From: Candidatus Omnitrophota bacterium
Lineage (GTDB): Bacteria > Omnitrophota > Gorgyraeia > JABMRG01 > JAFGKX01
Assembly: GCA_020354945.1 (NCBI GenBank)
Contig: CP070655.1
Coordinates: forward strand, 697,119 to 752,509
DNA length: 55,391 nucleotides
Direction of reading: 5' to 3'
Part shown: one piece after another, positions 1-10,713 of the stretch
Position numbering within the stretch: position 1 is the first letter of the stretch
How the letters are laid out: each line of letters opens with the position of its first letter
Translations under genes and position numbers: made by a program
The notes under the pieces: generated by a model
The model's database searches: none
The model's input: the letters and a program-made list of their open reading frames with translations, nothing else
Told to the model about the DNA's origin: nothing

Positions 1-1150
1 TGCATCATAGGTGGTCTCGCGATAGCCGCTATCAGTGCTGGTATCTACTATCCTCAGGTCCGCTACTTTATATGCTAAGAGGCGGTTATCATATCTTCTG
101 TCAAAGTATGTCTTTGATATAGCATCTACTGCTACTCCGTTTTTGGTCTCGGCGTAGTCTATATCATCTATATTTTCACCGCTTTCTTTGTAGGAGTAGC
201 TGGTTACATAGTCTTTAAAGTCTGTAGACTGGATTAGGTTGTCTCTATCAACATCATATACATCATAGGTGGTAATTCTGCCTGTCCTTAAGTCAGTTGC
301 CTGATAAGCCAAGAGTGCCCCCTCGTGGCCTTCTAAGTCAGCAACCTCACCTACTCTTGCATAGTCGGTGCGTGATATGTAAACTCCGGCTGGGTTTTGT
401 GTAAGAGAGTAATCGAGAGCGCCATTGCCATTATTTTTATAAACATATTCTGTTATATACCCCTTAAAATCTCTGGATTTAACAAGGGCATCATATTTAT
501 TATAAGCAAGGTAGGTGGTTTCACGATAACCGCTAACGGTTGTGGTATCTTCTACTCTTAAATCAACGGCTTTTGCAGCTAAGAGGGCGCCTTCTGTTGC
601 ATCTACCTCTATTACATCGCCGTCTGCTGTGGCGATCTGGCCGTTGTTGACTCTGCCATAATAGGTCCTGGTAATATCTATCGTGCCATTGTTAGTAGTT
701 GATATCGTCATATCGTTGTCGTCATCATATTCATAAGTGGTTATGTAGTTTTTGAAATCTCTGGATTTAATGAGGTTTTCGTTCAGGCGCTCAGGGTTAA
801 AAAGGTCATATTCGAGGTATTCGGTAATCCTGCCTGTGTAGCCGTCTATTGTATATGAAGCCATAAGTAGGTCATCGAAACGCACAAGTCTCTCATAGTA
901 TGTCGTGCTTAATATATCTTCAAGCTCACTTCTAGTTTCTGTATATTCAAGGTCTCTTTTTTCGTTGTCTATATATGTATAATCGGTAGTGATTCCTTTG
1001 TAATCTTTTGATTCTTTAACATTTCCATCGCTGTCATAATCCAGATATTCTGTGATTCTTTCTCCATCATCTGGTTTTGTGAGTTTATCTACTGTCTTGT
1101 ATGCAAGAATTCTTGTCACATCAAATCTTCTATCAAGCTCTGTTTCTGAC
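1..1150 (-). repeat. Tandem ~78-92-aa modules (second repeat family) inside the giant CDS
   Basis: Recurrent nucleotide blocks ending in ...gc(t/c)aagag near 76, 311 and 580, with degenerate relatives near 855 and 1105. Hand-translated copies read LLAYKVADLRIVDTSTDSGYRETTYD and ATDLRTGRITTYDVYDVDRDNLIQSTDFKDYVTSYSYK. Confidence 0.6.
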
Positions 1151-10100: not shown

Positions 10101-10713
10101 CGCGGTAAACCACAGTTCCATCAGGCATAACTATTCTTTCATTCAATACTGCCCTTACTAAACCTCTTTGAAAATATACGATGCTGCCGTCATCTTGTGG
10201 AACATAAGTTGTGCCTGCTTTGTATGCCATCTCGCTGGCATACCTTATGGTGCGCATTATATCCTGATACACAAGGTATGAATCGTATTTATCAAGGAAA
10301 ACACGCTGTTTCTGGCTTTGTTCTCTTACGTAGCTCTTGTATTTTCTGTGCTCAATGAGTTGCTTTCTTCTTAAATTTTCCTGCTGCTGATGTATCTGCT
10401 TCAGTTGCTCAATAGCAGTATAACCTCTTCCGGTGATATATTTCTCTTCTTGCTGATTAAGTGCGCTTAAATCAACGCCTTCATCAACTAAAGACTCTAC
10501 CTTGTCAAGGATTTCTTTCTTATCAAGGACAGGTTTAATTGGTTGGGATTGAGAAATGGCTGCAGGTTTCCCCCAGGTAGTAAAATCAGCTCCCTGAGCT
10601 AATTGCTGCCAGGAAAAGCAAATTATTACAGTCCAGCATATAGTCTTATACATAAGACTGCGGGCATTAAAAAAACTTTTATCTCTTAATAATTGGTTAT
10701 CCTGGGGTTTCAT
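1..10713 (-). CDS. Giant secreted YD/Rhs-type repeat protein, N-terminal 3,571 codons; the 3' end lies beyond the left window edge
   Basis: Absent from the ORF track because it has no stop inside the window. ATG at 10713 (complement). Any in-frame stop would have produced a listed minus ORF ending at 10713, and none is listed. Hand translation of 10713-9050, 8940-6841, 5100-3600 and 300-1 found no stop. The N-terminus MKPQDNQLLRDKSFFNARSLMYKTICWTVIICFSWQQLAQGADF looks like a signal peptide. The body is dense in YxYDxxG(R/K/N) motifs, e.g. CIYDSQGRLIEYTEYIYDEDTGELVGK and EYTYDANGKRVLSST. Confidence 0.85.
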   Translation of the reverse strand, partial: MKPQDNQLLRDKSFFNARSLMYKTICWTVIICFSWQQLAQGADFTTWGKPAAISQSQPIKPVLDKKEILDKVESLVDEGVDLSALNQQEEKYITGRGYTAIEQLKQIHQQQENLRRKQLIEHRKYKSYVREQSQKQRVFLDKYDSYLVYQDIMRTIRYASEMAYKAGTTYVPQDDGSIVYFQRGLVRAVLNERIVMPDGTVVYRDTINMTYNDSILLSSYTTITHQGQTNVGLYDFSEFDPEAGYNRFNFNPDALVSEYGYITETHFWDLRYSDVSVFYASDDTNAVKQLLSYRSSSRTYGTVPDSWYEDDEYQHVREDCIYDSQGRLIEYTEYIYDEDTGELVGKIEVSDVVYDPETGETLTYYQQAYEVDNDGNLELVQEGIVYTSYYVDRAFSVEVEINGDTVTETYRDRDDNVIYTIIRTNCVFDGNGKLIRFDLEKKDGNGNTIYKAHFEFVEEDPEGRREYTGVGLEGSSGNTYTIIEKRNQDGTLAEITNVYVNNTGETVYSTVIYQDGKSQSRTVTKYAEDGALLSAATIDYEYYDDGTIKKYKYSRITYADSGEVSSQITIEIDYDTDGNKTSYERRNFSSGGRLEIVEIDYEYGTDGDNTYVIENKTTTVCSGADDINDTTATATISSQSWETTRKTYNAIHKLISLVRINIKDTGEITETVITNTYDENGNRTFHLQVNKTYNIDKGDVAGVVSSVQANATLEGTDVDIDNPETQSLYAREYVWDEYQDGTETKHRRKKIIYLRVNEDNKATKTTTEYAYNDDGKNVITLRITETYDCGDEDVIGWIIEYQNSDYTFTSDDLETTTLRYTRKEYGVDADNNGELDDEEKGLLKKTTTVTVSDSGEATERITQYGYDENHKKIVTTILTNTYDYGADSTIVNDVDTYLRIDGEIKKESTLDGFAWIEPDSIQLRWTHTEYDAEDRIIKKISVSVNDEGEATETTTEYTYDANGKRVLSSTLTKTYNYSDGDSAIGALTGHAQVMIDDANPEDYDFEADTEGESPLATLDSITYRITQNEYDEDGNLIKRISISVSEDGEVTETINEYTYQEIDGRDRRVLSSTLTNKYNVKVATDENLLGNISAYANTLETQKQGIIDSYSTDPLVLVWLNVDSGSLLEIDSITYRITQNEYNEDANLIKRISISVSEDGEVTETINEYTYQEIDGRDRRVLSSTLTKKYDFGEYSGDVIDDLEGHKDSILADGVIFEEFMQMDQLGLNLDTYRDSISYRSTHNIYNENGSLIKSIKLSISERGDITETVTENVYALDKSGEPTRRVTDTKTTTTAYHFSKEDAENIINQLEVQKCSGTFAYLATSEWNDVNKEIVVTITSGILFDLSLSEREDLGSHLETTAVNKTAKRYNEDGKLIYSGTENKKYDKDGNLLEQSYSHEERAYTDEGDLAWVEKESLSADGAVTVDITVYNEDLNENGTLDDGEDINGDDALTSSGQDRRIAYKSKITFNADGSRQEEETRYAYYTRDEGGRKREGKLKQRTTITKKFNAQDTVNPEYEAIETTHNEYNDDGRLIKSYTTCTLNDVVVGFEVDFDVNNDQVVDGNDKVVSLTENVYDGDKIQERYSKSWKKLGDGTYNENEYTESISKYDEKGKFESSVTLNHHYNNSWEIVATFNTEQDGNKISTTYSIDETGEAKKTQRIYEGKSYKVKKTIEEKGTHTVGLLLDVTSFSEADIAATYTEKYETTIIKRRGYKIINQETEYYHNGVLVHTDTKTNDYQGSKLIRSETTRDYEDSAQDQRVALTINEYSGSKRISTYQFDTDREGNVTVSVLLHEDDADIFTANDDLFTKSITFKTADTSVLYALSSSDDEIKINIADIDKQTGQAFGLGIVELNYSDLDSNDDILNISIYQRDNEKPDDMKRLKSYYTKSTQIEDGIIREKSINYYSYENDNSRGRVTDSWDRAYNEDGDLLTYLEIHNTYSLDNDKAYVSHSEMVQITYDLDRETKTVTETRDFNKHSQVVSSTTTTQYSANQYAGMAITHIYERIEKAYSEGLLTNCDIYYSSEGDADVNVTNALLIDESNKGITNLSNSTHGPLNVYDIVFAIHLAPVQVAIASLNRWYQDTGLELPEEGELGEEVEQKIEEEIDKASQGKNITAESIKQTYGIDITGAFSQIGLWLLDNVFKVLPKSIIELVKSFNFLGAGAQPQEGVMAEATKEGDVNFFWNLKDLVRARVKYAIDSLSTTAGLIAKAVEDTVKYSIQKWATTIFHEVAHLVDFTENTILNTVKKARFALLNAFSKQIADFASRYGQISKEEDFSTVAESYAKDTRALFDTTSNILTQKALIVADMFSFKEGEQDKTYIFNIADDGTITAEAVNIQRNSQGNVTLIEGIDIEKPETKDTVVITVDDILKDGISRTVTRSDIITDPAGNTTSYTDTYTDEDGNTITDHIVGLEYNDYGNMTSFYRIHSEPVTGEIKIDAGSVTYWHNASYDGHKLLYFEEEGYTDFKGTIFDEKGYKLTLTDIDPNQAAFYSFSRTIDAWDSHNRATHYTETGNREATGDYEKEWWGTYEDKEEGARLTYYKEDLTGANGVTITTERWITYPSNEGQMISYHEVVTDPVGNQTITDWEGTYDGKDRLIEYHKTVLDTAIGATIEVDWYGSYNNLGQLKSETYLETDAETGKTQSRYLYNIRYNILGKQVSFTEKLVDDTGAILLRYRSGEPLEGDERGTIRYDNAGRMNHYRDLILDEWGNLTTVIWDALEFDQAGRVKHYKEVSRYPQEYMTQERDVSNITYTPYGKMMGFTDTTETYTFEKPTHTAGEYPDYFTGEPVSTFTKTITRSGATLDSNRDLYSYTDTTILEGYDNEADESVLDKQIITTRISTEYEGHLEKSYQELGYETTGTGERISPEKNITVTDISYNAFRKITGYNESARIYGTASDDATALDYTVYTTRDQIRYDLSGRIRGYIDEIASEDKPELTETVDMSQMAYNAMNQLITYKQISTKKEGDGEDDYLITTTVRNNMQYNGFDQVIYYHDTSEVVRDAGTLFVERENKDIHYNLYGQTKGYAEYEHKYDGAEYDTEIISEVSDMLYNNLGLSKEYKIKTISEAEEFTTDRVNYAVVKQQYNNNTIGRISRIETYNTESDYQIKQRLGQDVDYSKKYDIEYDTYAKITGYTTENAKESGLKSYTKAVEIDYTGSIDGQATYMKTENYNHNWRLESETELDRRFDVTRILAYKTVDKLTKPDDGERITEYLDYDSDGNVKESKDYKGITTDYTYIDNEKRDLEYTETRSELEDILSTTYYERLVRFDDLLMASYTIDGYTGRITEYLEYDLFNPERLNENLIKSRDFKNYITTYEYDDDNDMTISTTNNGTIDITRTYYGRVNNGQIATADGDVIEVDATEGALLAAKAVDLRVEDTTTVSGYRETTYLAYNKYDALVKSRDFKGYITEYVYKNNGNGALDYSLTQNPAGVYISRTDYARVGEVADLEGHEGALLAYQATDLRTGRITTYDVYDVDRDNLIQSTDFKDYVTSYSYKESGENIDDIDYAETKNGVAVDAISKTYFDRRYDNRLLAYKVADLRIVDTSTDSGYRETTYDA
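3730..4760 (-). other. Non-repeat ~340-aa insert in the giant protein carrying a gluzincin signature (HEVAH ... YGQISKEEDFSTVAESY)
   Basis: Hand translation gives ...KWATTIFHEVAHLVDFTENTILNTVKKARFALLNAFSKQIADFASRYGQISKEEDFSTVAESYAKD... HEVAH is encoded at 3997-4011. The candidate third-ligand Glu is at 3871-3873, 7 residues after the Tyr of RYGQ. YD-type repeats resume on both sides. Confidence 0.6.
6841..8800 (-). repeat. At least 7 tandem 89-112-aa modules (conserved ~60-aa YD core plus variable spacer) inside the giant CDS
   Basis: Translated cores: DSITYRITQNEYNEDANLIKRISISVSEDGEVTETINEYTYQEIDGRDRRVLSSTLTKKY, DSITYRITQNEYDEDGNLIKRISISVSEDGEVTETINEYTYQEIDGRDRRVLSSTLTNKY and DSIQLRWTHTEYDAEDRIIKKISVSVNDEGEATETTTEYTYDANGKRVLSSTLTKTY. 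Nucleotides 7175-7275 and 7511-7611 are almost identical, with an offset of 336 nt (112 codons). Confidence 0.8.

Follow-up and report, generated by a model that had tools for sequence, protein, structure and literature searches.

Candidatus Omnitrophota are already known for giant genes (bioRxiv 10.1101/2023.11.21.568195; 10.64898/2026.06.07.730766). In the giants of West-Roberts et al. 2023, which exceed 30,000 amino acids (aa) and carry numerous transmembrane regions and a divergent SecA DEAD domain, a hollow antiparallel β-helix of ~1,500 aa is predicted, with regularly spaced exterior helices and 'similar to Rhs repeats'; prey adhesion and cell-wall attack have been proposed for these proteins (bioRxiv 10.1101/2023.11.21.568195). 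The giants of Nielsen & Lui 2026 have at least 10,000 aa. Omnitrophota giant genes are thus a recognised class, largely unannotated, and 137 of 916 catalogued long proteins have no domain match at all. Here we analyse a 55,391-nucleotide (nt) stretch of contig CP070655.1 (the window), the first 10,713 nt of which encode, on the minus strand, the N-terminal part of a giant protein without recognised Pfam domains. Its anatomy comprises a predicted export, stalk, and head module common across phyla, a hairpin repeat that probably has the YD/Rhs fold, and a mid-chain zincin with an apparently intact catalytic motif. Because Rhs-like β-helix filaments are already published for Omnitrophota giants, nothing is overturned. 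What is new is the sequence family (a head and a 30-aa YD-like unit that PF05593 and TIGR01643 miss) and the lethal-factor-like zincin in mid-chain. We favour, with a probability of roughly 0.55, the reading that this is a real, fast-evolving giant envelope protein, in which a YD-like hairpin superstructure is combined with a zincin, and which would be exported to form a surface filament or tubule for contact with a host or prey.

Read from ATG 10713 to nt 1, the minus strand gives an open frame of 3,571 codons with no stop, and the frame runs on past the end of the window. The remaining five frames of 1-10713 contain 168-397 stops each, with a longest open run of 160 codons. The program-made list of open reading frames (ORFs) shows only short plus-strand ORFs in this region, because the lister omits ORFs that run off an end; an earlier reading of the DNA letters alone (the sequence-only reading) was therefore correct that a frame running past the end is open here and missing from the list. 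The closest in-frame stop 5′ of the ATG is 22 codons away, and an alternative GTG start lies 11 codons 5′ of it. ATG 10713 is backed as the start because two orthologs, P0002 and P0004, begin at the equivalent Met and have the N-terminus in common with the window protein. In the 3,571-aa part, T (11%), D (9.7%), E (8.7%), and Y (7.7%) are abundant, whereas C (0.3%) is scarce.

An exhaustive HMMER search with residues 2001-3200 against 1.84 billion representative sequences finds 61 relatives, many of them several thousand residues long with 10-20 repeated matches. P0002 (MFH0731364.1, 'hypothetical protein, partial', Candidatus Omnitrophota) has at least 4,543 aa, being cut by a contig end. It matches the whole search query at 44% identity and is collinear with the window protein from residue 1 at 35-41% identity. 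Its locus (L081) has the same order of the leucyl-tRNA synthetase gene (LeuRS), a glycoside hydrolase family 94 (GH94) gene, and the giant gene as the window, and the giant gene runs off the 160-kb contig. Given the open frame and the collinear 35-44% identity to P0002 in this gene order, the ORF is a real gene and not a chance frame. LeuRS and GH94 are 78% and 73% identical between the two genomes, in contrast to 35-44% for the giant protein, indicating that the giant gene diverges much faster than its neighbours. P0002 has ~1,000 residues more than the window protein, indicating that repeat copy number varies. An insertion of ~400 aa in P0002 (aa ~2520-2920), absent from the window protein, contains a proline-rich stretch of WTPPV/WIPPV repeats and several additional long-unit repeats; thus both repeat copy number and inserts vary between orthologs. 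P0004 (3,758 aa, Omnitrophota, cut by a contig end) has the common N-terminus and the non-repeat module described below, in another neighbourhood. P0003 (1,629 aa, on a 7.4-kb contig) has the module and begins mid-protein.

It is very improbable that the frame is an assembly artefact made of mis-joined repeats, or an unexpressed pseudogene. The window sequence and the contigs of all three other subfamily members do stop inside the gene, and the contig of the relative with 91% identical LeuRS stops ~125 nt after GH94. Against this, 3,571 codons are free of stops at 39% G+C, the protein is conserved collinearly in an independent assembly, and word-indexed searches with aa 2101-2520 and with profile A4 yield a single 258-aa fragment, 95% identical, from a marine sediment metagenome; the same kind of search with aa 560-1400 gives no match. 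Tandem Repeats Finder reports no nucleotide tandem repeats in 1-10713, and the sole long near-identical DNA pair there (181 nt, 90% identity, 336 nt apart) is in frame. DNA repeat families D1-D3 fall in the long-unit array at aa 642-1299. Since the repeat copies are divergent at the DNA level, an assembly artefact is unlikely, and the risk is low. In the closest relative (L001, CAZMYR010000028.1; LeuRS 91%, GH94 87%), the contig stops where the giant gene would start. This and the ORFs truncated in the window, in L081, and in L082 (the P0004 locus) show that assemblies from short reads are systematically broken at or within the giant gene. Near-identical DNA repeats as the cause of the breaks are unsupported by the visible sequence of the window, L081, and L082. 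No extension of the gene past the window end came from GTDB representatives or from two Joint Genome Institute metagenome scans, with the C-terminal 400 aa and the subfamily alignment as queries.

To describe the fold, we use two AlphaFold2 models, each searched with Foldseek against the PDB. Model 1 covers aa 2001-3200 (14-row multiple sequence alignment; mean predicted local distance difference test score (pLDDT) 77.1; predicted template modelling score (pTM) 0.57), and model 2 covers aa 141-1340 (11 rows; mean pLDDT 63.3; pTM 0.40). All features of the giant gene given below lie on the minus strand. In model 1, an α/β module (pLDDT 80-93) is followed by an unbroken antiparallel meander with strands of 9-14 residues and turns of ~5 residues. 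This YD-like meander occupies aa 2361-3233 (1015..3633; pLDDT mostly 75-95), the region that matches most superfamily members. In model 2, a helix comes first and hairpins run from the head onward. An irregular β-hairpin meander at aa 331-641 (8791..9723; pLDDT mostly 65-87) leads into a tandem array at aa 642-1299 (6817..8790), which self-BLAST, an iterated hidden Markov model (HMM), and the model resolve into seven units of ~95-112 aa. Each unit consists of a conserved 57-aa core (RITQNEYDEDGNLIKRISISVSEDGEVTETINEYTYQEIDGRDRRVLSSTLTNKYNV), predicted to form four strands, and a variable, partly α-helical insert of 40-55 aa. The inserts appear as helices at model residues 840-857, 948-969, 1053-1083, and 1161-1174, and the pattern of four strands and helices per unit is seen over aa 980-1315 within a continuous meander. 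A further β-rich region with a weaker repeat signal at aa 1300-2040 (4594..6816; unmodelled past aa 1340) is delimited by composition, by HMM units at aa 1366-1580, and by collinearity with P0002. Finally, self-BLAST and the iterated HMM detect repeats of ~85-95 aa over aa 3234-3564; this array (aa 3234-3571, 1..1014) holds four copies and a fifth that starts at the last residues and is cut by the window end. P0002 and P0004 both stop, at contig ends, inside the region equivalent to it.

The only strong Foldseek matches of both models are Rhs, Tc, and teneurin shells, with probabilities of at least 0.99 and well ahead of generic barrels. For model 1, all six matches at E ≤ 1e-3 are YD shells, namely two chains of the type VI secretion system (T6SS) Rhs core 8qja (1e-18), TcdB2-TccC3 (6h6e, 8e-13; 6sue, 1e-11), teneurin-2 (9g2f, 1e-12), and Yersinia BC (4igl, 4e-7), and the next ones have E > 0.06. 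For model 2, the top three are Tse15 Rhs (8uxt, 7e-17), 4igl (9e-13), and 6suq (2e-11). Across all matches, TM-scores are 0.10-0.19 and rmsd to the solved cocoons is 22-40 Å, at pTM 0.40-0.57, indicating that the local architecture is YD-like and that the overall shape is not superimposable on a closed cocoon. The sequence-only reading, which had taken the repeats for YD/Rhs β-hairpins, thus holds for the predicted hairpins, and fails for superposition on a cocoon. Behind the head, ~3,000 residues are predicted to fold as one long antiparallel β-hairpin meander of YD/Rhs type, interrupted once, by the predicted zincin, and on the modelled evidence the strip can be assigned to the YD/Rhs structural type.

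Sequence tests give a different picture of the repeats. The canonical YD repeat has a period of ~21 aa. The literal motif YxYDxxG, more than 3,000 residues of which the sequence-only reading had described, occurs once in the 3,571 residues, and YDxxG occurs ten times. For a looser YD-type turn, [YF][DN]xx[GNDH], the count is 41, compared with 12.7 ± 3.4 in shuffled sequences. The enrichment in YD-type turns is real, yet these are not regular 20-residue YD repeats; the hairpin repeats described earlier stand, and their regularity does not. In the relatives, the hairpin repeat has a period of 29-33 aa and the consensus xWxxxxYDxxGxLxxYxExxxDxxGxxxxx. Known repeat models fall short: PF05593 and TIGR01643, which the sequence-only reading had proposed as a check, have no match at E ≤ 1 on the whole protein (Pfam, NCBIfam), RHS_repeat (PF05593) appears three times when the protein is cut into nine segments, at 15.9, 12.7, and 8.1 bits, below the cutoff of 22, and none of 17 relatives matches RHS_repeat at E ≤ 0.01. 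A phmmer search of the whole protein against all PDB sequences returns nothing at E ≤ 10, and the repeat profile finds nothing significant in the PDB, reaching the Rhs protein 7q97 only at E = 2.5. YD-type architecture is therefore under-counted by sequence models.

These data bear on whether the protein is an Rhs/Tc-type encapsulated polymorphic toxin, in which one or more cocoons would enclose the zincin or a C-terminal toxin that is freed by autoproteolysis and delivered into a target cell. We consider this distinctly unlikely. The best and only strong structural matches are indeed the Rhs, Tc BC, and teneurin shells, the segments carry weak RHS_repeat traces, and the missing C-terminus leaves room for an Rhs core and a toxin. 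In addition, at the C-terminus of distant relatives whose ends are complete, hydrophobic helices precede one more domain, an arrangement that resembles effector modules. However, neither the protein nor the 17 relatives give a significant PF05593 or TIGR01643 match, the repeat profile approaches an Rhs protein only at the E-value given above, and the superposition on cocoons is poor (rmsd > 20 Å). The Rhs core motif PxxxxDPxGL, which the sequence-only reading had raised as a marker of such a core, is absent from the 3,571 residues and from 64 relatives, the true C-terminus lying past the ends in all four subfamily members. The period of 29-33 aa in relatives also departs from the canonical one, and no VgrG, PAAR, or TcA-like genes are present in the window. 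The strip of ~3,000 residues is long compared with solved shell chains, which have 1,021-2,168 residues including non-shell parts.

Set beside the solved Rhs/YD shells (T6SS Rhs effectors 8qja, 8uxt, and 7q97; Tc toxin BC 4igl, 6h6e, and 6suq; teneurin 9g2f), the giant protein is alike in being a long antiparallel β-hairpin strip with Y-D-x-x-G-type turns. It differs in the repeat, which is ~30 aa in relatives and built into composite units of ~100 aa in the giant protein, and in having roughly three times the hairpin strip needed by a cocoon. Unlike in the shells, the predicted enzymatic domain lies mid-chain and not at the C-terminus, and there is no T6SS or TcA context. In the favoured reading, the hairpin strip would wind into an extended hollow filament or tubule and not into a closed Rhs cocoon, and the tubule may be likened to the published Omnitrophota 'antiparallel beta-helix'. 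The two have in common the phylum, β-rich stretches of >1,000 aa without Pfam domains modelled as continuous hairpins, and regularly spaced helical inserts, a likeness of secondary-structure pattern. In contrast to the giants of West-Roberts et al., the available part of our protein is without clusters of transmembrane helices and without SecA-DEAD, dockerin, TSP3, or glycosyl-enzyme domains, no locus resembling a type II secretion system (T2SS) lies nearby, and the known length is at least 3,571 aa (at least 4,543 aa in the ortholog) versus >30,000 aa.

The sequence-only reading had noted one non-repeat module interrupting the repeats. The module is found at about aa 2041-2360 (3634..4593), and its identity, missed at that time, is that of a zincin metallopeptidase-like domain, related to lethal factor, TIGR04549, and Peptidase_Mx1. 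It coincides with the α/β module of model 1. In an alignment (A3), it can be compared with P0002, P0003, P0004, and some ten small proteins (175-1,045 aa), several with a signal peptide and helical repeats. Invariant throughout the alignment are H2235, E2236, H2239, E2281, D2282, one Lys, and one Gly. H2235, E2236, and H2239 form HEVAH (3997..4011), the predicted zinc-binding and catalytic motif, which is invariant in 14 of 14 aligned homologs and is the only HExxH in the protein. E2281-D2282 (3868..3873, in YGQISKEEDFSTVAE), equally invariant in 14 of 14, is positioned as a candidate third zinc ligand; it aligns with YG..NEAEFFAE of lethal factor and with the EDF motif of 9urd_A. Both the HExxH and the Glu-Asp pair appear intact.

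In the PDB, profile A3 matches 9urd_A ('substrate import-associated zinc metallohydrolase lipoprotein'; E = 5.3e-8) and 4l7a (3.5e-3); its matches to anthrax lethal factor (0.035) and to the Pro-Pro endopeptidase Zmp1 (~0.7) are weaker, and the alignments span HExxH and YG…EDFA. Among the 14 module members, seven match Peptidase_Mx1 in Pfam (best 3.7e-6), seven ATLF, and four Peptidase_M90, and nine match TIGR04549 in NCBIfam (best 1.2e-7). phmmer connects the giant's module with the small homologs at E values of 1e-12 to 1e-4. Because its own copy alone falls below threshold, the zincin assignment is made at the family level. The domain resembles the zincins of TIGR04549, Peptidase_Mx1 (PF15890), and the lethal-factor group (ATLF PF07737, Zmp1, M90 MtfA) in having HExxH and, ~42 residues on, YG…(E)ED/EFFA with an invariant Glu; unlike them, it sits mid-chain in a giant repeat protein and is not a small lipoprotein or a toxin domain. 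Of the giant proteins compared, only those of the Omnitrophota subfamily have HExxH. The sole hydrophobic 19-mer, aa 2063-2081, was considered as a transmembrane segment and rejected, as its hydrophobicity is not kept in P0002. In the favoured reading, the metallopeptidase domain would cleave proteins on, or from, the surface of a host or prey during epibiotic contact. As a small expressible enzyme domain, it offers a handle on the protein, and the repeat and head profiles offer another for finding the family.

The N-terminus is signal-peptide-like or a signal anchor (aa 1-41, …YKTICWTVIICFSWQQLAQG|ADF; 10591..10713). Read by eye, it has a basic n-region, a hydrophobic stretch (ICWTVIICFSW), and then AQG|ADF; it is kept in P0002 and P0004, and 11 more distant relatives have analogous hydrophobic N-termini. 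It is followed by a Q/K/E-rich, coiled-coil-like segment (aa 60-167, 10213..10536), of which aa 142-167 are helical in model 2 and the remainder is judged by eye and composition; an equivalent segment occurs across the superfamily. Both elements agree with what the sequence-only reading had described. The next region is a conserved head (aa 168-330, 9724..10212; …DGSIVYFQRGLVRAVLNERIV..G.V.YRDT.NMTYN...LL.SY … SVFYASDDTNAVKQLL), which forms β-hairpins in the model. Its alignment with 13 relatives has invariant D, N-E, G, and Y columns, and the pattern common with distant members is …DG…F.dGL…NER…G…R.T..M.YN…LL.sY … SVFYA.D.TNA.K. The protein would be exported by Sec and then attached to, or released from, the cell surface, with a helical, stalk-like segment and the conserved head behind the N-terminal signal, and with helical inserts decorating the four-strand units. 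The earlier view, by which this is the N-terminal part of a very large, probably secreted β-hairpin repeat protein that continues past the sequence end, is supported, and the idea of a fibre, mega-adhesin, or toxin is plausible but unproven.

The more distant superfamily members reach 7,965 aa, match in 10-20 stretches, and have in common with the window protein the signal peptide, the coiled segment, and the conserved head; one is from Elusimicrobiota. A bolder interpretation is that the ~30-residue 'W…YDxxGxL..Y.E…D..G' superfamily, with its conserved N-terminus of signal, coil, and head, is a distinct, unnamed sister of the YD/Rhs repeats that builds not closed cocoons but open-ended tubes of thousands of residues; in the Omnitrophota subfamily, the mid-chain zincin would lie inside the tube or at a joint, and the whole would be a new kind of contact-dependent device by which ultrasmall epibionts deliver or attack. 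This we regard as speculative and very unlikely. Hydrophobic, glycine-rich helices are present near the C-terminus of distant members whose ends are longer or complete, namely P0010/P0063 (aa ~4270-4870), P0027 (aa ~4660-5820), and P0011 (aa ~7050-7200). Behind the helices of P0010/P0063 and P0027 comes a globular region containing a GxSxG-like motif (DHSQGA, GHSGG), a hint that these proteins may end in a membrane-active or hydrolase effector module. Of P0010, P0011, and P0027, P0010 was scanned with Pfam and has no match.

Several points weigh against the favoured reading. The alignments behind the models have few rows (11-14), and confidence in model 2 is modest. The choice of filament over cocoon rests only on the low TM-scores (0.10-0.19) and on analogy with the literature. 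The signal peptide of the giant protein is judged by eye, and the giant's own zincin copy alone is below the Pfam and NCBIfam thresholds. The C-terminus, the possible site of an Rhs core and a toxin, is missing in four of four subfamily members. In addition, a secretion system, a T2SS-like locus, and an adhesin partner are all absent from the 45 kb upstream, where the annotated genes include no T6SS, T2SS, type I secretion system, VgrG, PAAR, or TcA-like genes.

The genomic setting also bears on a non-offensive role, in which the protein would be an envelope component, such as an S-layer-like or sheath scaffold of an ultrasmall cell, and the zincin would serve maturation or be a non-catalytic fold. 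The gene has housekeeping genes around it and keeps its synteny with LeuRS-GH94 in one related genome, a dedicated neighbourhood for secretion or toxin immunity is lacking, and the architecture of head and repeats occurs in several phyla, for example in the Elusimicrobiota member. However, the divergence (35-44% identity versus 73-78% for the neighbours) and the variable repeat number are more typical of proteins that face other organisms, conservation is strict at the zincin's catalytic residues, and the location is not kept in a more distant genome. At 80 LeuRS loci checked, no relatives of the giant ORF are present, synteny being found only in the closer genome L081. We regard a purely structural role as unlikely, and retain the exported filament or tubule with a predicted zincin as the favoured reading.

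The LeuRS of the window is 91% identical to that of one contig of a metagenome-assembled genome (MAG) and 55-74% identical to those of many Candidatus Omnitrophota MAGs, and the orthologs of the giant protein bear the annotation Candidatus Omnitrophota. The source is assigned to Candidatus Omnitrophota on the LeuRS identities, in agreement with the sequence-only reading, which had likened the gene to those of lineages known for giant genes. All ORFs of at least 150 aa with a family match in 11205-55194 (~44 kb) are on the minus strand, and GC skew is negative over this whole range. The neighbours are of ordinary bacterial type, namely GH94 (two copies), LeuRS, GlgC, GH57, GlgA, GalT, CHASE2-SpoIIE, MlaFED, AccA, YkuD-LysM, FolE, MnmE, a Mur-ligase-like protein, PurH, YchF, and a polysaccharide deacetylase. 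No RNA genes are found in 1-10713, and the only plus-strand features found in the window are tRNA-Ala(GGC) at 16761-16835 and tRNA-Leu(CAA) at 23047-23133.

In the 491-nt gap after the GH94 gene, a consensus scan finds a candidate sigma-70-like promoter, TTGACT-17-TATATT (10844..10872, minus strand; 10 of 12 matches, a pattern match only). A perfect-looking hairpin, AAAAGTGGGGAATATTCCACTTTT, with T/A runs on both sides, lies at 10746-10769, 33-56 nt 5′ of the giant-gene ATG and 3′ of the promoter-like site. Flagged as terminator-like on either strand, it may act as a terminator, an attenuator, or a regulatory element of the 5′ untranslated region.

One of the two GH94 phosphorylase paralogs, both on the minus strand, is directly upstream of the giant gene; the second adjoins a PilZ-domain protein, whose GH76-like match is weak and below threshold, and a GH2-like TIM-barrel protein. 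As a set, these four genes occupy 11205-13712, 49069-51522, 51570-53507, and 54199-55194 (minus strand). West-Roberts et al. report conserved pilZ and carbohydrate-uptake genes close to Omnitrophota giant genes (bioRxiv 10.1101/2023.11.21.568195), whereas here such genes are ~40 kb from the giant gene. On the minus strand at 41608-48951, three large ORFs follow one another (835, 567, and 1,006 aa), each with a hydrophobic N-terminus. Pfam matches none of them, NCBIfam gives a single TPR trace below threshold, and kinship with the giant protein was rejected, as there is no similarity. According to precomputed Pfam matches, an intein with a LAGLIDADG endonuclease lies in the UvrB gene of L082 (1621-5259), upstream of the P0004 giant gene. 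In the window, the MnmE ORF and the Mur-ligase-like gene upstream of it overlap by 139 nt (34161-35738 and 35600-36928, minus strand) if the first TTG is taken as the MnmE start. Because its Pfam match begins at residue 54, the true start of MnmE is probably further downstream.

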